A stretch of DNA of 29,296 nucleotides from a virus: UHGV virus genome UHGV-0080837. One strand, written 5' to 3'. Numbering within the stretch: the first letter of the stretch is position 1; each line of letters begins with the position of its first letter. Shown in pieces: positions 2,588 to 27,991 of the stretch. Below the pieces are notes generated by a model, which saw only the letters and a list, made by a program, of their open reading frames with translations, searched no databases and was not told the DNA's origin. The translations under genes and the position numbers were made by a program.

Positions 2588-3265
2588 ATGAATAACAAGG
2601 CAACGAAAGAGCTTTTTAAGCTCCTTCCCAAATACAAAGCTCAAAAAAACGTTAGTGCATCGAAAATCAAAAATGTTGTTATTTTCGGAGTAACTGATAC
2701 CCCACTTTGGGGCAGCATCGAACTCGTTGAACCTAAAGGGGCAACAGTTTGTGTTGACGCAATGTTTTTACAAAAACACCGACCAAAAACTGGCGGGTAT
2801 CTGATCGTTTATGAAAACGGTTATCTGTTCTATGCCCCGGAGAAACCATTTGAGGAACGCTATGGCCTGGTTAACGACGCCTCCAAAAATGGAACCACGG
2901 TCATCATTACGGATGACAACGGCGTGATGATTAATCTTACCGGGAGCGTAACTATTTCTGCTGGTGGCATCACCACCCAGCAAGAAGAAATCGACCTTGA
3001 AGCAGCCGACTTTTCTGACGCGCTGATGTGGCTGAAGGATGGCAAGAAAGTTGCCCGGCGCGGGTGGAACGGCGAAAACCAATTCTGCTGGCTGGTTCCT
3101 GAAGGACAGTACCCGGCACGAATGGAAGCCATTAAGGGATATTTCCCCGGCGATCTCGTTCCGTATGGTGCTTATTTCGCCTTAAAAAATGCACAAGGTG
3201 TAGTTGTTCCGTGGGTGCCTTCTGTAGGCGACTTACTGGCATGTGACTGGTTTGTAGTGGAGTGA
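2588..3265 (+). CDS. two-domain protein: unknown N-terminal domain plus C-terminal DUF2829 (Tad2-like) domain
   Basis: 225-aa ORF. C-terminal ~85 aa (FSDALMWLKDGKKVARRGWNGEN ... WLVPEG ... VVPWVPSVGDLLACDWFVVE) matches the DUF2829 pattern as I recall it; the N-terminal ~140 aa are unassigned. Confidence 0.6.
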   Translation: MNNKATKELFKLLPKYKAQKNVSASKIKNVVIFGVTDTPLWGSIELVEPKGATVCVDAMFLQKHRPKTGGYLIVYENGYLFYAPEKPFEERYGLVNDASKNGTTVIITDDNGVMINLTGSVTISAGGITTQQEEIDLEAADFSDALMWLKDGKKVARRGWNGENQFCWLVPEGQYPARMEAIKGYFPGDLVPYGAYFALKNAQGVVVPWVPSVGDLLACDWFVVE

Positions 3266-3271
3266 TTTAAC

Positions 3272-4039
3272 GTGGAAAATACTAAAGCAATTCAATACCG
3301 CTTGCGTAATGGCCTGCTGGTGGCTGTTAACGCCGACATGTCACTGCCGTTTGACACGATTGAACGTACTATCATGACGTATCTCGGCTTTAATGAAGAG
3401 CTGAATGAAGAGCATGGCGTAGCTATATGGAGTGATGCAGAAAGCGGCGTTCATCGTTACATCACCGCCAGGGGCAAAGACTACTCTCTGGAAGAACTGT
3501 TTACCCTTGCACAGTCTTTCGAATGTGTAGCATTAGACATGTTTAATGATCCTGCTATAGCGCAACGACTTATACGCGAGCTTGGGCTGTCGGTTACACC
3601 AATTATCTTTAAGAATGGCAGCCTGACTGGCACATGGCGCGTAGAACGCATCTCAAACTACCTTCCATATAACCGACAGTTAAATGGAGTAATCTCCGGC
3701 GTTAATCAGCCCGTAGCGTGTGAAAATGTAAACCTGGTTGCCGCTGTTTTGGCAACCGCATGTCGTGTTATCGGTTTGGCTAAACAGGCTTTTATTCATT
3801 TCCCAAATGGTGCAGAAGGTAGCGCAGAGATTATCGCGTGTGATTTCGAATTTACCTGGATGCTACGCGAATATCTGGACCAAACAGTGTTCCGCGCCGA
3901 AGAACTGGATATGTATATCACGTCAACGATTCCTGATGATGTGCGTGCTGAAGCAATCGCTACGGCCAGGGCGAAATGCCGTGCGGCGATTGCAGAACAG
4001 GCCAAAGAAGAAGTTAAGGAAGTGGCAGATGGCGACTAA
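3272..4039 (+). CDS. hypothetical protein
   Basis: 255-aa ORF with GTG start at 3272, acidic C-terminus; same strand and tight spacing with neighbours. Confidence 0.5.
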   Translation: MENTKAIQYRLRNGLLVAVNADMSLPFDTIERTIMTYLGFNEELNEEHGVAIWSDAESGVHRYITARGKDYSLEELFTLAQSFECVALDMFNDPAIAQRLIRELGLSVTPIIFKNGSLTGTWRVERISNYLPYNRQLNGVISGVNQPVACENVNLVAAVLATACRVIGLAKQAFIHFPNGAEGSAEIIACDFEFTWMLREYLDQTVFRAEELDMYITSTIPDDVRAEAIATARAKCRAAIAEQAKEEVKEVADGD

Positions 4040-5123
4040 GAGCAATATTTATAAAGATCCGCGCTGGCTGTCGCTGGTGGAGAAATATAAAGACAATTGG
4101 GTACTGGCAGCAAAAGAATTGTTTGATATTGATTTAAGCCACCAGCAACAACAAATTGTTGAAGCTATACAGCCCAATAATGCAAAAGCTACTGTCACCA
4201 CTCCGTATGGGATCGGACGACCGCAAGTGCTTGCTGTTATTAGTACCCTTTATACGATTATGTATCCTGATTCCCGGACAGTAATTGTTTATCCAAAATC
4301 AAATGTTTGCAAAAGAGGAATTGTTGCATATGTGTGGCAATGTTGGGAGGCATTGCTGAAAAAACAACCTTTTATCATTGAGTATTTTAAGGTCGGTGAT
4401 AGCGGTCTGATGTTCAATGAATTTTGGGGAATGTGCTTTTGTAACTACCGCCTTAACTATGAAGATAGCATTGCAGGTCACTACGCCGACCATCTTTTAT
4501 TCATTATTGTGGATTCCGCACATATCAGCGATCGGGCATACAGCATTGTGTGGGCAAGCATGACTAGTGGTGATTCACGCATATTGCTCACTTCAATTCC
4601 GTCACCAGAGGAAATAGGCTTTTTTTATGATTCACATCATGGACGTGCTTTAGCTGAAGATAATCCGAGTGGTGTATATAAAGCCATTAAGCTGAGTGCG
4701 GAGGATTCACCATTTATTACCCAAGAATATCTTGATCATTTTGCCGAAAGGTATGGCGGGCGAAATAGTGATGACTATCGTCGTATGATTCTTGGTGAGT
4801 TCCCTGGTATTAGGGAGGCTGTTCTTGAATCAGATATGCCGAAGACAATGCGCTTTTCGATGCCTGATGGTAGTGAATGGACAATGCCATTACGAGTGAT
4901 AGCCCGGCATCATGCGCAGCACCACGCCAAAAAACATGGCGTCACGACATTAGAATGGTTGAAATCGCACACTATTCCACTCTTCACTGCAGATCACAAT
5001 GCTATCATTGAGTGGGCAAAAACAATTCCGTGGGAGCATGTCGCTGAATATGCTCACATGCTAAAACCGCCGAAAGACAGGCACGAAATTAGCTGGCTGA
5101 CAGCCGAAAAAATCATTGAATGA
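4029..5123 (+). CDS. hypothetical protein (364 aa from the ATG at 4029)
   Basis: The track ORF 3738..5123 overlaps the previous gene in another frame; the in-frame ATG at 4029 (MATKSNIYKD...) overlaps the upstream stop by 11 nt and is the likely start. Contains a Walker-B-like hydrophobic stretch ending in DS (LLFIIVDSAH), but no P-loop. Confidence 0.5.
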   Translation: MATKSNIYKDPRWLSLVEKYKDNWVLAAKELFDIDLSHQQQQIVEAIQPNNAKATVTTPYGIGRPQVLAVISTLYTIMYPDSRTVIVYPKSNVCKRGIVAYVWQCWEALLKKQPFIIEYFKVGDSGLMFNEFWGMCFCNYRLNYEDSIAGHYADHLLFIIVDSAHISDRAYSIVWASMTSGDSRILLTSIPSPEEIGFFYDSHHGRALAEDNPSGVYKAIKLSAEDSPFITQEYLDHFAERYGGRNSDDYRRMILGEFPGIREAVLESDMPKTMRFSMPDGSEWTMPLRVIARHHAQHHAKKHGVTTLEWLKSHTIPLFTADHNAIIEWAKTIPWEHVAEYAHMLKPPKDRHEISWLTAEKIIE

Positions 5124-5130
5124 TATCAAC

Positions 5131-5164
5131 AAAAAGCCCGCCAGGTCTGGCGGGCTTCTTTATG
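5131..5164. terminator. bidirectional intrinsic terminator between convergent operons
   Basis: Stem GCCCGCCAG (5136-5144), loop GTC, CTGGCGGGC (5148-5156), flanked by AAAAA upstream and TTCTTTAT downstream. Sits between the + stop at 5123 and the - stop at 5169. Confidence 0.65.
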
Positions 5165-5168
5165 CGCC

Positions 5169-5558
5169 TTAAATCACAGGTCTATAATCAAACTCCCCAC
5201 TTCGGGCATCATTAATGACATGAGTGATCACACCAAACACAGCATTACTGCCCGTGCATCCATCGTCATCTACTGGTAACGCCTCTTTCTTCCCGGTGCT
5301 TAAATCCTCCAGGTGCTGGCGCGGATACTTCCTGTATCTCTTTATGCGATATTCACCCTCCATAGCGCATATAAGCAGTGAACCATCAACCGGAGTAAGT
5401 GAGGAATCAACCACCAGCAAAGCACCTTGCAATATTCCCTCACGGTGATGGCTGTCTGCCGCCCGCATGAAGTAGGTCGCGGAAGGATGTCTGATTAGTT
5501 GCTGATCAAGAGAAATGCGGCTCTCTGCATAATCCGCCGCAGGAGAAGGGAAGCCCAT
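5169..5558 (-). CDS. humD: UmuD'-like S24-family protein (P1 HumD-type SOS mutagenesis accessory protein)
   Basis: 129-aa ORF with a LexA/UmuD C-terminal-domain-like core (LLVVDSSLTPVDGSLLI ... EGEYRIKRY). A consensus SOS box lies 19-38 nt upstream of its ATG. Confidence 0.8.
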   Translation of the reverse strand: MGFPSPAADYAESRISLDQQLIRHPSATYFMRAADSHHREGILQGALLVVDSSLTPVDGSLLICAMEGEYRIKRYRKYPRQHLEDLSTGKKEALPVDDDGCTGSNAVFGVITHVINDARSGEFDYRPVI

Positions 5559-5576
5559 AGCGTTTTACCTCAATGA

Positions 5577-5596
5577 TACTGTTTATTCATACAGTA
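5577..5596. promoter_or_regulatory. LexA operator (SOS box) in the humD promoter
   Basis: TACTGTTTATTCATACAGTA at 5577-5596: perfect CTGT-N8-ACAG spacing with an AT-rich centre. Confidence 0.8.
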
Positions 5597-5681
5597 TACA
5601 TTGAAAAGGCATAGTTTGTGAAAGCGGGGTTTGTAGGCGCGCCACGCTGGGGGCTAATCACATTTCTCCCCCATCTTGCCG

Positions 5682-5933
5682 TTATTTTTTTGGTGCATCC
5701 TCGTTCTGATACACCGGATCGCTCCCTTTTGGCAACTGGAGGCTTAACTGCCGGTAGTGCCGTAGCCGTTCCATGAAATAGGCGCGCAGATTCTCTGGTT
5801 GCTCGCGGGCTACCTGTTCAGCTATGACAGGTATGTTCAATCGCTCTTTGTACGCCACACCGCTGGCAGCCAGATCAACGTTAACCTTATCCCGTTCTTC
5901 CTGACTTTTAGCTGCAATATTCCAGTCGCTCAT
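5682..5933 (-). CDS. hypothetical protein
   Basis: 83-aa ORF, tightly spaced after the upstream gene (stop at 5936, start at 5933). Confidence 0.45.
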
Positions 5934-5935
5934 AT

Positions 5936-6208
5936 TTAAGGCTCACATTTCCAGATGGTATTCTGAACACCAGAACCGGGCGCTAGATGAGGGTTAGCGT
6001 TCGCGCTATGCTGATATACTGCTTTAGACTTCCCATATTGCTGACAGGCTTTATCTGCGGTTTTTTGCAGGCTATCCAGGCCATACCAACCATCTGACTG
6101 TATGCTTACCTTTTCACCGTCGTTGTATTGCACCATTGCACACCCAGATATAGCCAGTATCGCGCCGACAATAACGCTTTTCCATAAAACTCTATGCAAC
6201 ATATACAA
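5936..6208 (-). CDS. small lipoprotein, YgdI/YgdR-like (DUF903-like)
   Basis: Signal peptide with lipobox (ILAISGC); mature N-terminus [18 protein letters not shown] resembles the YgdI/YgdR pattern. Confidence 0.45.
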
Positions 6209-6247
6209 AAATCCCCTCTGTGAATTGAGGGGATTTTAGCATGGTGA

Positions 6248-7006
6248 TCAGATATCGGCCTTATTCGGAATTTTATCAGCCACCAGCGGCAATAAAGCCT
6301 TCGCCATTTCATGAACCAACATGGCATCAATGACGCCTAGCGTATGGCCCGGCTTAATCTTTAATGCGGCCTCAAGATAGCCTCTTTCCAGAGTGGTTTT
6401 TACGCTTTTCTTGGGCGATTGTTGGGAACTATCCGGAAAATCCGGATGGTTGCCAGCCTCGTAAGCTACCCGCAGCCAGTGCATGAATGTTTCAGTGGAC
6501 ACACAACCACAGTCCACATCGATTTTCCCGCGTTGCTGTTCCAGCCATTGCCCAAAATCCAACCTGTAAGTCTTACTTTCAAGTTCATCACCATTGAACT
6601 CGACTTTCTGCGACGCTATGAGAGCTGATTCGTATTGTTCGCGAGTGACAACTGACAGGTATTCATCGCTATCAAGGTCACCAATTGGAAGCTCAATCTC
6701 ACAACAAAAATTGCGCCCAAAGAACGTGTCTTTTTTGTGGTCTGAGCCAAAAGCAAAAGTCGCGCATGGCGCCATTAAATTGGCACTGAGCAGGCGACAA
6801 TCGATCATACCATCAGGCCACCCGCCGCACTTAGGCAGCTCCTTCACTAACAAGTCGATAAGCTTCATTTTTTTATCATCTTTGCAAGCCGCCAAAGCCA
6901 TTTGGGCAAGTGCCAATACTTCATCTGCCGTATATCCAGCACCGTGACCATACATTTCGATACGGGCGATAATCTCTGATATGCGTTCTTTAGTGATTCT
7001 TGTCAT
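6248..7006 (-). CDS. hypothetical protein
   Basis: Track ORF 6248..7021; the ATG at 7004-7006 (MTRITKER...) gives an ATGA overlap with the upstream stop and is the likely start. Confidence 0.45.
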   Translation of the reverse strand: MTRITKERISEIIARIEMYGHGAGYTADEVLALAQMALAACKDDKKMKLIDLLVKELPKCGGWPDGMIDCRLLSANLMAPCATFAFGSDHKKDTFFGRNFCCEIELPIGDLDSDEYLSVVTREQYESALIASQKVEFNGDELESKTYRLDFGQWLEQQRGKIDVDCGCVSTETFMHWLRVAYEAGNHPDFPDSSQQSPKKSVKTTLERGYLEAALKIKPGHTLGVIDAMLVHEMAKALLPLVADKIPNKADI

Positions 7007-7377
7007 TTCTTTTTGCGCCATTTCTTTTCACATTCCTTAGTCCATTTTTCAATGTTCATTTTGGCAATATCAGTCATTCCATCACCTAAGAAATACTTTT
7101 TCCGGTATGCCTTGCACTTAAACCACACGACAACAGCCACCAGCCAGAAAATAAAAGGCCATACAGCAATACCAACTACAGCCGCGATAAAGCCCAATAG
7201 CCATAAATGAAGCTCTCCAACTTCTGTTTGCGGCAATATTCTTAAAGAATTAAACAGCAGACTGAACGAATGGTCGTATGCATTGGCGGTATAAGACATG
7301 CAATCCATATAATTAAAGTCATAGCCTGCGGCTGCCGCCCATAATGGGCGGTCAAGAAAATGTTTTAGTGTCATCAT
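7003..7377 (-). CDS. small membrane protein
   Basis: 124-aa ORF with one strongly hydrophobic segment (LWLLGFIAAVVGIAVWPFIFWLVAVVVWF) and a Lys-rich C-terminus. Confidence 0.45.
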   Translation of the reverse strand: MMTLKHFLDRPLWAAAAGYDFNYMDCMSYTANAYDHSFSLLFNSLRILPQTEVGELHLWLLGFIAAVVGIAVWPFIFWLVAVVVWFKCKAYRKKYFLGDGMTDIAKMNIEKWTKECEKKWRKKK

Positions 7378-7383
7378 ATAAAC

Positions 7384-7677
7384 TTAAGGTTCAGACCAGT
7401 TATCTTCAATAGCAATGCTTAATCTTTGTAGCCATTCTGCTAATTTCAGCATTGCTTCTCTTTCGCTTAAACCACGAGGAAAATCATCAAGCGAAATTGT
7501 TGGCTTGAAGCCCCCGTAATTATCCATTTCAACGGTCAGATTTTGCTCCAGCACGGTATTCCTTACGCGGCTATTGTGCCGAAGCAAATATACTGAACGT
7601 GATTTATTGGTTTTGTGGTCGAATGTATATTCGGTAAGTATCATCTGGCTTCCGCCATGATTATTACCTCGCCACAT
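7384..7677 (-). CDS. hypothetical protein
   Basis: 97-aa ORF; GGAG 5 nt upstream of the ATG at 7677. Confidence 0.45.
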   Translation of the reverse strand: MWRGNNHGGSQMILTEYTFDHKTNKSRSVYLLRHNSRVRNTVLEQNLTVEMDNYGGFKPTISLDDFPRGLSEREAMLKLAEWLQRLSIAIEDNWSEP

Positions 7678-9239: not shown

Positions 9240-9417
9240 CCGTTAAAGCCCAGAATAATTTCCCGGCCGGATGTTTGAAAATATAAGCAACTGGATCTGC
9301 TTCCAGCGATGCCAGTGCAATTTCATAAGCCCGGCGTTCAATATTGTCTCGAACGTCCAGGCTGCTGATACGCTCTTTGATTTCTTTAATCAGTTCTTTG
9401 TCGGTTAAAGTGGTCAT
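9157..9417 (-). CDS. hypothetical protein
   Basis: 86-aa ORF, ATGA-coupled to the upstream gene. Confidence 0.4.
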   Translation of the reverse strand: MTTLTDKELIKEIKERISSLDVRDNIERRAYEIALASLEADPVAYIFKHPAGKLFWALTDESNKEQADVIPVYAAPSSTSSTCCIT

Positions 9418-11488: not shown

Positions 11489-12484
11489 TCAGTTATTAAA
11501 CGTGATCACTCCGCGCTCGATGGCGAAGTCGAAAAGCTGGTTAGCGACTACATAAAGGCGTATGCCATGTGCTTTTTCCCATGCCCGGACATCGTGTTCT
11601 GCGCTTCTGGCGCAGTCATCGCAAAGAGGAACAGCCCAGCGGTCGTGTTCGTTTAACGAGCGGGCGCGGTACATGAACGGGTGGTTAACTTTGCTACCGC
11701 ATCCGATGCACGGACGAGAAACCACAAAGCGGAGATAAGCCGGGCTTTTTCCGAGTAAGGTTTTTGGACGGCGCATATATAGGAGGCCAGAATCCTCATC
11801 TACAGACAGGTTGACGATCTGCTCTGCGGTTATGTCCACCAGCTCGCGCGTACTGCGCTCCCAGGTGATATCTGATTCTTTCAGCGTACCGGTAGGGATT
11901 TCAGTTTTTGGCTGACAAAATGCAATGCGCCCGGCTTCATCTGGCAGCTCATCTTTCAGATTCCGGCGAATGGCCCAAAAAGTGAGTTCAACCATGCTCA
12001 GATCGCGTTCTGGCGGTAGTTTTAACTCGCTCGCAGCCCAGTTCATAACCCAGTTGGCGCGATTCAGGGATAACTGGTCGTCCAGCTTGCTGTACCCCTT
12101 CATCATGTATTCCGCATCATGCTTCCAGCACAGGCGAACGGCAGAGCCGTTATAGAAATGAGTGGTTAGCTGGTGGCTGCAATCGCGCTTATCGTGCGCC
12201 TGGCAATCGTGGATATTGGAACTTACCCAATGAACAAGCGAATCTTCACCGCCTAACGCGTTAAATACGCGCTCGCTTTGAAAAAATGGTTTCAGCGACT
12301 GGTTGGCAACCAGCGAATAATTCAGATCCACTACGCCATCTGGAGTGTTTTCAGCCTGTTCTCGCGGAAGTGGTGAGATAATGAAACGGCGACCTGCGCC
12401 GATGTAGTTGCTGGTGGGCTTGTCTACCGGAAAGACAGCCACACCAGTTTCATTTACGACATATGGGGTGATTATTGCACTCAT
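11489..12484 (-). CDS. DUF968-like prophage protein
   Basis: 331-aa ORF with C-terminal Cys/His cluster (CIGCGS ... CDDCARSAEHD) as in lambdoid DUF968 proteins. Confidence 0.5.
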   Translation of the reverse strand: MSAIITPYVVNETGVAVFPVDKPTSNYIGAGRRFIISPLPREQAENTPDGVVDLNYSLVANQSLKPFFQSERVFNALGGEDSLVHWVSSNIHDCQAHDKRDCSHQLTTHFYNGSAVRLCWKHDAEYMMKGYSKLDDQLSLNRANWVMNWAASELKLPPERDLSMVELTFWAIRRNLKDELPDEAGRIAFCQPKTEIPTGTLKESDITWERSTRELVDITAEQIVNLSVDEDSGLLYMRRPKTLLGKSPAYLRFVVSRPCIGCGSKVNHPFMYRARSLNEHDRWAVPLCDDCARSAEHDVRAWEKAHGIRLYVVANQLFDFAIERGVITFNN

Positions 12485-12527
12485 AATGCATACCGACTCT
12501 GTTTTGTTCCGAGTGGTAAAATAATAT

Positions 12528-12558
12528 GTTAGAAAACTAAAATCAATATTCTAACGCA
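12528..12558. promoter_or_regulatory. operator dyad with leftward promoter-like elements (internal promoter)
   Basis: TGTTAGAAAA (12528-12537) and TTCTAACGCA (12549-12558) in inverted orientation. Minus-strand TTGATT and an AT-rich -10-like hexamer overlap it. Confidence 0.4.
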
Positions 12559-12581: not shown

Positions 12582-13274
12582 TCAGACTTTAAGCTGCCCT
12601 CCCTTCACCTGCATTAGCGTCAGATTTCCACAAAAAACCGCGCCCGTGTCTATGTAGTGCTGATTCCAGTATGCTTTTGGTCTTCGTACCGGTGTGTGCC
12701 CAAAGATAAAGCGATCTGCGCCTGTGATTTCTCCACCAATGCCATCTATCGAATCACCGACGCGACTGCGCGACCAGACAACATCAAAAAGCGATACATC
12801 CTTACCGAACTGGTACTCTCCACCTGGATAGTCGGCATGGGCTATAACGATAGTTTCATGTCCGGTGTTCAACTCAATGATATATGGCAGACGCTTTACC
12901 AGCTCCACCAGCGCCTTGGCTAATATTTCCTGATCAGTGTCCAGCATGAAGAACCATTGTCCGCCATTCATTAGCCAGTTATTCACGTTGCCATCAGGAC
13001 TTAACGCATCAAGCATCAACCGCTCATGGTTCCCCATTACTGCCCTGAACCAGGGCATCTGCAATAGTTCCAGACATTCGACATTTTCAGTACCGCGATC
13101 GATAAGGTCGCCAACCGATATCAGTAAATCCTGCGCCGGGTCAAAATCCACACGATGGAGTTCGGACATCAGTCTGGTGTAGCAACCATGCAGATCACCA
13201 ACTACCCATATGTTTCTGTAGCCAGAACCATCAATACGGCTATATAAATTCACTTCATGCATAGCCTGGATCAT
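12582..13274 (-). CDS. Ser/Thr protein phosphatase, bacteriophage lambda PPase family
   Basis: Near-colinear similarity to lambda phosphatase from memory: [48 protein letters not shown]. Start taken at the ATG at 13274 (ATGA overlap with the upstream stop). Confidence 0.9.
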
Positions 13275-13582
13275 GCGGCAACCTTCTCCCGCAGCCAGAT
13301 ACAAACTGGACCATCTTCAGTGTCATGAATAGAGCCAACAAACCAGCCTTCACCCTCTGGTCGCTCCGGTTCCCAGGCGGCAATATCGGGACCAGCTGCG
13401 TCCAGATCAAAATCATCTTCATCCATACTGCGAATAGTCCACTGAAGATTATTTTCCTTCATCCAGGCGTCAAATTCCTCAGTGGATATATATTCACGAC
13501 CTGCGCAAAACTTTTCATACTCCGGATGTGTCCAGCAGCCATATTCATCACGTTCTACCGGCATTTCTTTAATGATGCTCAC
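13271..13582 (-). CDS. hypothetical protein
   Basis: 103-aa acidic ORF in operon context. Confidence 0.45.
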
Positions 13583-15613: not shown

Positions 15614-15658
15614 ATATTAATGTTTTGTGTTAGAAAATCAATTTTGAATATCTAACCA
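15614..15658. promoter_or_regulatory. divergent promoter region with operator dyad
   Basis: Dyad TGTTAGAAAA (15628-15637) and TATCTAACCA (15649-15658). On the minus strand TTGATT, a 16-nt spacer and TAATAT form a good sigma70 promoter with a half-site in the spacer; a rightward TTGAAT -35 overlaps the other half-site. Confidence 0.5.
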
Positions 15659-15705: not shown

Positions 15706-16284
15706 ATGCAGAAACAGAGCTATTGGGAGAAACAGAGACAAAAAGCCATGCAAAAATTGGCTGACCCAGCCTGGCGAGAGGAACAAAGGGCAAAGCGCCT
15801 TCAACAAGCTCAACGCCAGCAGCAACGAGCGAGAGAAAAAGCCGCATCGCCTGAATATCGGCAAAAGAGAATTGAAAAAGCAAAGCAATATGACCAGCGG
15901 AGAAAAGAGAAAGCTGTATCCACTCCGTCCAAAAAAACACGCACGTCACGCGGCCTGAAGGGCAGATCACTCACAGCCGATGAACGCCGGATACAGACCG
16001 CTATCGGTACTCTCCCCTGCATTGCCTGCCATATTCACGGGCAACATAGCCCAGTGGTATCCCTGCACCATATCTTCGGGAGAACGGCAGAGAACGCGCA
16101 TAAATATGTCCTCCCTTTGTGTAAATGGCACCACCAGTACGCAGCGCCAGCCGAGGTCCGAGAACAATATCCCTGGCTGGTCCCTGTTCATGCTGACGGA
16201 AAAATAGGCGGAAAAGCAGATTTCATGCGGCACAATGCCGATGAAATGGCGTTGTATCAGATGGCGATTGAATTGATAAATTAG
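15706..16284 (+). CDS. ref: Ref-like HNH-family nuclease (P1 recombination enhancement function type)
   Basis: 192-aa ORF with a long, highly charged K/R/Q/E-rich N-terminal region followed by a Cys/His core (CIACHIHG ... SLHHI ... LPLCKWHH), matching the known architecture of P1 Ref. AAGAGG RBS. Confidence 0.55.
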   Translation: MQKQSYWEKQRQKAMQKLADPAWREEQRAKRLQQAQRQQQRAREKAASPEYRQKRIEKAKQYDQRRKEKAVSTPSKKTRTSRGLKGRSLTADERRIQTAIGTLPCIACHIHGQHSPVVSLHHIFGRTAENAHKYVLPLCKWHHQYAAPAEVREQYPWLVPVHADGKIGGKADFMRHNADEMALYQMAIELIN

Positions 16285-16296
16285 TTTTCTAACATT
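16273..16296 (+). promoter_or_regulatory. promoter-like element with operator half-site, start of the immI-like region
   Basis: TTGATA then AATTAGTTTTCTAACAT; the 15-mer TTAGTTTTCTAACAT is shared with the minus-strand promoter at 12528-12546. Confidence 0.4.
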
Positions 16297-27035: not shown

Positions 27036-27079
27036 CCAATTGTGTTAGATAATTGAATAGAATTTTCTAACACAATTGG
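27036..27079. promoter_or_regulatory. perfect 14-bp inverted repeat operator overlapping the rdgC promoter
   Basis: CCAATTGTGTTAGA (27036-27049) and TCTAACACAATTGG (27066-27079) flank a 16-bp spacer containing TTGAAT; ends 6 nt before the rdgC ATG. Confidence 0.55.
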
Positions 27080-27085
27080 TGAAAC

Positions 27086-27991
27086 ATGAGATCAGTCGCT
27101 TTCAAAAACATCTTCATCTATCGTCTTTCACGTGAAGTTAACTGGAGTGCCGCAGAAGTATCCGATGCTCTTAGCAAATTCGTGTTTACTCCTTGCGGTT
27201 CTCAGGACACAGCTAAAGTCGGTTGGACACCTGTTCTTGGTGACAACCTCACCCATGAATACCAGGGTTTTCTGCTAATACAGCATAAGCGAGAAGAAAA
27301 AATTCTCCCCTCGCAGGTGCTCAAGGAAGAGTTGCAGAAAAAAGTCCTGAAACTCGAAGAAGAGCAAGCCCGCAAGCTGAAGAAAACGGAAAGAGACAGT
27401 CTTAAAGATGAAGTCCTGCATTCACTTTTGCCTCGCGCGTTCACGAGAAAATCACTCGCCAAAATCCTGATCGACCGCAGCAACCATCTGGTATTCGTTG
27501 AGGCAAGCAGCGCCAAAAAGGCAGAGGACCAGCTGGCTTTATTGCGAAAGTCGCTCGGCAGCCTGCCTGTCATTCCATTCACACCACGCGAACCGCTGGA
27601 AATTACAATGACCGAGTGGTTTAAAAGCGGCTTCCCTGCCGGATTTACAGCAGGTGAAGACGCCACATTAAAGGGTCTGCTCGATAATGGTGGTGCCGTT
27701 CGCTGCAACAAAGTTGATCTACAGTCCGACGAGATTATGTCTCACATTGAGGCGGGGAAAGTAGCTACGACCGTTGCAATTAACTGGATGGACCGTGCGT
27801 CGTTCAGAGTCAACGATGATATGAGTATCAAAGCCCTGACATTCTGTGATGATCTCTATGACCAGAACGACGATATCGACCGGGAGGATGTAGCACAACG
27901 ATTTGATGCTGATTTCGTGCTCTTTACGGGCGAATTATCTGCACTGTTTAACGCGCTGGTGGAGGCCATTGGCGGTGAAGCAGAACGATAA
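27086..27991 (+). CDS. rdgC: recombination-associated protein RdgC homolog
   Basis: 301-aa ORF near-colinear with E. coli RdgC from memory: [93 protein letters not shown]. Confidence 0.9.

Follow-up and report, generated by a model that had tools for sequence, protein, structure and literature searches.

UmuD'-type genes that stand apart from umuC are known from several phages. The closest described systems are the humD genes of P1 and P7, in whose records positions −20 to −39 of humD are marked as a LexA protein_bind feature (P1, AF234172, 87545-87564; P7, AF503408). The P1 record describes it as a "LexA binding site in the regulatory region of lxr and humD". humD has been listed as a LexA-regulated SOS gene (PMC9603915), and P1 lytic growth does not need it (PMC10695390). 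Further UmuD'-type cassettes are found in the linear plasmid prophages phiKO2 (gp23, with an annotated lexA site) and N15 (gp26), in the lambdoid phages HK639 and HK140, and in the P22-like phage BTP1. As in the locus described here, each is a stand-alone gene whose product begins M/V-GFPSPA, with no umuC and with a strong LexA box upstream; in N15 and phiKO2, a terminator is also annotated downstream. These five systems differ from ours in that the proteins are 60-67% identical and the neighborhood is another one, after tail-fibre genes and near sop/par or int. In some of them the box is shared with a divergent dinI or a small ORF lies between box and gene.

The host counterpart, E. coli umuDC, has a promoter LexA box of similar strength and encodes a Pol V accessory subunit with the S24 fold. 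E. coli umuD differs in specifying a 139-aa precursor that is cleaved on RecA filaments at Cys24-Gly25 and in being co-transcribed with umuC, whereas the HumD sequence begins where UmuD is cut, has no accompanying umuC, and is extended at its C-terminus by a tail of about 11 residues.

We analyzed a 29,296-nt stretch of the virus genome UHGV-0080837, referred to here as the window. Its matches place the window among the P1-type phage-plasmids as a D6-like representative: within the first 25 kb, 69% is covered by phage D6 (94.7% identity), and positions 3000-7500 are covered by the E. coli plasmid pN16EC0879-2 (98.9% identity). A LexA site in front of humD is already known from the P1, P7, and phiKO2 records and is found here in a D6-like variant context; since the same site is annotated in P1 and P7, the feature is ordinary rather than new. 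From its sequence and setting, we consider it probable (about 0.85) that the box is a functional, high-affinity operator for host LexA on a private humD promoter and that HumD, derepressed during the SOS response, pairs with UmuC. The features of the locus are as follows.

5169-5558, minus strand: humD, encoding a 129-aa, pre-truncated UmuD'-like protein; the A of the ATG is at 5558
5577-5596, no strand assigned: LexA (SOS) box, TACTGTTTATTCATACAGTA on the plus strand and TACTGTATGAATAAACAGTA in the direction of humD
5617-5622, minus strand: predicted −35 hexamer TTCACA from a promoter scan, common to D6, RCS47, and pN16EC0879-2
5593-5598, minus strand: predicted −10 hexamer TATACT from a promoter scan, kept in P7, SJ46, Cyrano, and PhiR41_1
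5568-5571, minus strand: Shine-Dalgarno sequence GAGG, read directly, 9 nt before the ATG and conserved in an alignment of upstream regions
5124-5160, minus strand: intrinsic terminator, a 13-bp GC-rich hairpin followed by UUUUUGUU
5682-5933, minus strand: hot, encoding a homologue of the DNA polymerase III theta subunit (PF06440, 1e-34)

The first-pass annotation, made from the sequence alone, had called the gene downstream of the box UmuD'-like, and the protein comparisons bear this out. The product matches Peptidase_S24 in a Pfam scan and belongs to the HumD equivalog NCBIfam NF051876 over its full length (209.4 bits; cut-off, 120; residues 1-129 of 129). It scores 86.8 bits against the model for self-cleaving, full-length UmuD (NF007621), below the cut-off of 110, and lacks the 24-residue N-terminal arm that carries the Cys24-Gly25 cleavage site. 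The UmuD' structures 1umu, 1i4v, and 8gmt all align with the protein (E about 1e-22). Since HumD residue 2 aligns with residue 1 of UmuD' in 1umu_A and with residue 25 (Gly25) of UmuD in 8gmt_B, HumD corresponds to a Met followed by the exact product of RecA-mediated cleavage. Its identity to P1 HumD is 95%.

To describe the family, we aligned the protein with homologues from N15, phiKO2, HK639, yong1, and Cyrano. The position of the UmuD catalytic Ser60 is occupied by Ser, Thr, or Tyr, and that of Lys97 by Lys, Met, or Arg. Variation at these positions is consistent with self-cleavage no longer being needed. HumD proteins also share a conserved C-terminal extension (GEFDD.P; SGEFDDCPV) that is absent from E. 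coli UmuD'; in the window it reads SGEFDYRPVI (GEFDYRP; residues 119-129, 5169-5204).

The catalytic changes and the tail also bear on what HumD does. A LexA-controlled HumD could have a main role other than mutagenesis, either titrating host UmuD/UmuC or acting with Hot on the beta clamp/Pol III, so as to favor phage-plasmid replication after damage. The adjacency of hot and humD in the window, the tail that UmuD' lacks, the unconserved catalytic Ser and Lys, and the dispensability of humD in P1 lytic growth would all fit such a role. We nonetheless regard it as highly improbable. P1 HumD reportedly dimerizes and binds both UmuC and RecA filaments; it is also said to complement UmuD' functions and to restore mutagenesis in hosts unable to make UmuD'. 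Loss of the catalytic residues is expected once self-cleavage is unneeded, and most other lineages have no hot beside humD. A narrower version, in which the humD and adjacent hot of the D6/RCS47 type, which lacks lxr and has a near-consensus promoter, work together as a small SOS-linked unit for tuning the replisome, with the HumD tail mediating a phage-specific interaction beyond replacement of UmuD', strikes us as decidedly unlikely.

The box itself carries exact TACTGT and ACAGTA arms at 5577-5596. In a pattern search of the 29.3-kb window, it is the single exact occurrence of the CTGT-N8-ACAG palindrome (full consensus, TACTGTATATATATACAGTA); from base composition, 0.002 exact matches to TACTGT-N8-ACAGTA are expected in 29.3 kb. 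We scored LexA sites with an approximate symmetric weight matrix built from 25 E. coli LexA boxes. With this approximate matrix, the box scores 25.0 bits and has a heterology index of about 3.0, compared with 25.6 bits and 2.4 for umuDC and 22.1 bits and 5.2 for recA. The threshold for sites that bind LexA is reportedly about 12.6, which places the index of the box, approximate as the matrix is, within the LexA-binding range.

A matrix scan of the whole window found a second-best site of 10.4 bits. Since this runner-up falls below the mean for the best site in shuffled windows (11.2 bits; maximum, 18.8 bits), no LexA-type site other than the box is present in the window; none of 500 shuffles reached 25.0 bits. 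The first-pass annotation had described a sole LexA-type site 19-38 nt upstream of the humD ATG, within the span 5559-5600, and both its position and its uniqueness stand. The LexA site is thus confirmed as real; on its sequence, it is almost certainly functional. A palindrome that arose by chance and has no regulatory role would be easier to credit if the pattern were loose, as 0.5 matches per window are expected when two mismatches are allowed. However, the match is exact, the shuffles do not approach its score, and both its position and its arm sequence are conserved across unrelated phage lineages. Together, the shuffles and the conservation in the named and IMG/VR loci described below effectively refute a chance origin.

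Outside the window, another strong LexA-like site, TACTGGATAAAAAACCAGTA (22.3 bits), is present in the plasmid CP043746.1 at 77079-77098 (27079-27098 of our extracted locus L018). This plasmid site, which possibly corresponds to the LexA site reported for the P1 coi promoter, falls within a 104-aa ORF; genes for a regulator, an Icd-like protein, and a DNA-binding protein form a module about 600 nt downstream.

We next consider the promoter. The predicted sigma-70 promoter of humD, TTCACA-18-TATACT, agrees with the consensus at 10 of 12 positions and is the only promoter-like minus-strand site that the scan found in 5000-6300. The box had been said to overlap the likely −10 element; the predicted TATACT (5598-5593) indeed shares 4 nt with it, and on this predicted promoter the box would also cover the expected transcription start. 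Such placement over the −10 and the start would be the standard repressing position for an operator. In Salmonella, the box spacing of tightly LexA-repressed genes is 21.6 ± 5.8 bp, and the 18-nt gap between box and ATG in the window fits this class (PMC8072944).

On the other side of the gene, the terminator begins 13 nt past the humD stop codon, between humD and the convergent plus-strand ORF 4029-5123. The hairpin has a predicted energy of −24.7 kcal/mol (z = −4.8), with 0 of 200 shuffles folding as well, and because an A-run lies on its other side, the terminator is probably bidirectional. A phd-doc addiction module follows humD in P1, P7, RCS47, SJ46, and D6 and is absent from 3272-5160 of the window. 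Its place is taken by two plus-strand ORFs with matches of unknown function, 3272-4039 (phrog_2326) and 4029-5123 (phrog_5902), the second with weak similarity to the terminase large subunit. Both ORFs converge on humD at the shared terminator.

The same-strand neighbor upstream of humD is hot, whose stop codon is at 5682, leaving an intergenic gap of 123 nt. We found no significant terminator between the two genes (hairpin after hot, z = −0.5), and transcripts of the upstream operon could therefore also reach humD; with such read-through from hot, bound LexA would act as a roadblock only. The first-pass annotation had placed humD at the end of an accessory operon. This holds insofar as the gene lies downstream of hot and may receive read-through, but not for its own promoter and terminator, which set it apart. 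With its own promoter, the GAGG, and the hairpin terminator, humD is predicted to be a self-contained, LexA-gated cassette downstream of hot. A 52-aa plus-strand ORF at 5618-5776, divergent from the box and antisense to the end of hot, was treated as spurious.

Other features of this region concern hot and the genes beyond it. A 90-aa minus-strand ORF upstream of hot (5936-6237) has a lipoprotein-like signal sequence and matches phrog_7757 (function unknown). A terminator-like hairpin (6237-6208) precedes this ORF and suggests that the genes upstream of hot are transcribed as two or more units. While hot is intact (83 aa) in the window, RCS47, and pN16EC0879-2, comparison of phage D6 (MF356679, about 3394-3540 of our extracted locus L003) with 5600-5933 of the window revealed a deletion that joins hot near codon 25 (..SGVAYK) to the humD upstream region, with the junction at the microhomology CTACAAA. 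The 48-aa "theta-like" ORF annotated in D6 runs across the LexA box.

On comparison with P1 and P7, the parallel to P1 that had been drawn for this locus proves exact: both records annotate a LexA site at the same humD position. The HumD proteins are 95-96% identical, the box lies at −19 to −38 in the window and at −20 to −39 in P1, and the TACTGT/ACAGTA arms and the context of the ribosome site are the same. The central spacer differs from that of P1 by two substitutions (ATGAATAA in the window, ATAAATGA in P1). In P1, a divergent lxr lies between the box and hot; the window, like RCS47, has no lxr in the 123-nt gap and so no divergent lxr-humD unit of the P1 type, and the P1 match to the window breaks into two pieces around the lxr insertion. 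Downstream, P1 has phd-doc where the window has the terminator and the convergent ORF.

The promoters differ as well. The −35 and −10 hexamers of the window are nearer the consensus (10/12), while the same scan found no promoter in the P1 region, where the −35 position reads TGCACC in place of TTCACA. The hexamer that overlaps the box is TGTACT in P1 c1.100 (about 2931-2936 of our extracted locus L001) and TATACT in P7, SJ46, D6, RCS47, and the window, so the −10 of the P1 laboratory strain is one step further from the consensus. P1 HumD is reportedly poorly expressed in vivo, and the TGTACT might contribute to this. We rejected a far-upstream PhumD of the P1 kind for the window, as that sequence lies within lxr and is absent here.

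These P1 features raise another possibility, namely that the box is a leftover or shared operator for a divergent gene (lxr in P1; dinI in phiKO2 and HK140), that humD is mainly read through from a repressor-controlled or late operon ending with hot, and that LexA has little effect on it. In P1 the site is annotated for lxr as well as humD, and the predicted PhumD is about 480 nt upstream, inside lxr; the phiKO2 box is shared with the divergent dinI; and, as described above, the gap between hot and humD contains no significant terminator. We consider this reading unlikely. In the window, the box overlaps a promoter with 10 of 12 consensus positions that points at humD. Moreover, N15, HK639, yong1, pAEv1818, and APC_JM3.2 have the box although their upstream neighbor is a same-strand tail gene and there is no divergent partner; the APC_JM3.2 box, beside a truncated gene, is degraded to 14.8 bits. 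The box is also kept in 78 of 80 humD loci from IMG/VR.

The distribution of the box was examined in 16 named loci (P1, P7, D6, pN16EC0879-2, RCS47, SJ46, Cyrano, PhiR41_1, N15, phiKO2, HK140, HK639, APC_JM3.2, pAEv1818, BTP1, and yong1). In every one, the gene with the MGFPSPA start is preceded by a box scoring 14.8 bits or more; 15 of the 16 boxes reach at least 20 bits, and that of APC_JM3.2 is the weakest. The box ends 15-45 nt before the annotated start codon in 14 of the 16, with pAEv1818 counted by its annotated start, which is 15 nt upstream of the coordinate scored. As for the remaining two, the phiKO2 box ends 45 nt before a GTG, at the edge of the range, and that of HK140 is at −282.

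The IMG/VR loci gave a similar picture. A strong upstream box was present in 78 of the 80 and lacking in two. In 63, a box of at least 18 bits lies within 120 nt of the start, and where the box is proximal, no further site reaches 15 bits. Another 15 resemble HK140 in that a small ORF intervenes, with one box or two in front of it at −275 to −305. Across the 26 distinct box sequences, the CTG/CAG arms are invariant and the center varies at most positions; the promoter DNA on either side does not align from one lineage to another. Invariant arms, a variable center, and unalignable flanks are what one would expect of an operator that is under selection and moves together with its gene, which argues that the box belongs to humD and not to lxr.

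In one IMG/VR sublineage, two LexA boxes stand in tandem with their starts separated by 24 nt, at −305 and −281 relative to humD and ahead of the small ORF. These loci are L050, L051, L053, L054, L056, L057, L061, L062, L065, L069, and L072, and the pair is duplicated in L056.

Closer to the window, the box is identical in D6, RCS47, and pN16EC0879-2. Among 5,426 complete E. coli genomes, 619 contain the 5′ region of humD together with its box-bearing upstream DNA. Of 647 placements of the humD 5′ region in E. coli, 630 are on plasmids, almost always P1-like ones.

Since the reading of humD as a LexA-gated cassette had included independence from the phage repressor, we searched for repressor operators. 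The P1 C1 operator ATTGCTCTAATAAATTT, with up to three mismatches allowed, has no match in the window. As a search with the P1 consensus cannot alone exclude a heteroimmune operator, we also sought repeated motifs. One of these, TGTTAGAAAAT (up to one mismatch), occurs in seven copies in the window against 0.74 expected.

1196-1206, 12527-12537, 15628-15638, 16284-16294, 27043-27053, and 27062-27072: six strong copies of TGTTAGAAAAT, all between ORFs
9272-9282: a weaker copy of TGTTAGAAAAT

One pair of copies forms a palindrome just upstream of rdgC (27086). The copy at 12527 lies between a phosphatase gene (12582-13304) and a DUF968 gene (11489-12484), both of which belong to the minus-strand gene string that ends with hot. 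From their number and placement, the copies are probably operators of a D6-type C1 repressor, and none was found within 3.6 kb of the humD promoter. In a P1 study that compared four C1-controlled genes with four not under C1 control, the primer targets not named as C1-controlled were humD, phd, hot, and parA (PMC4713147). Given the lack of an operator candidate nearby and the P1 humD primers of that study, it is reasonable to infer that humD is independent of the phage repressor and the prophage immunity circuit, which agrees with the earlier suggestion.

The first-pass annotation had also noted that humD has no umuC partner in the window, and our searches gave the same result. A Pfam scan detected no Y-family polymerase domain in any window ORF of at least 290 aa. 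When the window and CP043746, the nearest complete plasmid, were searched with UmuC by tblastn, no match was better than E = 0.39; the gene table of CP043746 lists no Y-family polymerase. A umuC partner carried on the element was therefore rejected by both Pfam scan and tblastn.

These features suggest how the cassette would work. As long as the lysogen is undamaged, humD would be kept off by a LexA dimer sitting at 5577-5596, across the end of the −10 element and the predicted start. Upon DNA damage, RecA filaments would stimulate LexA self-cleavage, the promoter would clear, and HumD would be made. HumD would serve as a UmuD' that needs no RecA-mediated processing and, together with SOS-induced UmuC from the host, would form a Pol V-like translesion polymerase. 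Such an enzyme could form once UmuC appears, bypassing the slow conversion of UmuD to UmuD'. We infer LexA occupancy, the start site, and SOS induction of humD from the arrangement of the locus; the partnership with UmuC is proposed because of what is reported for P1 HumD.

For annotation, the value of the finding is that humD can be marked as a host-SOS-controlled cassette. As a LexA-gated gene on common phage-plasmids, humD could supply pre-activated UmuD' during antibiotic-induced SOS, which would bear on stress-induced mutagenesis in clinical and livestock E. coli.
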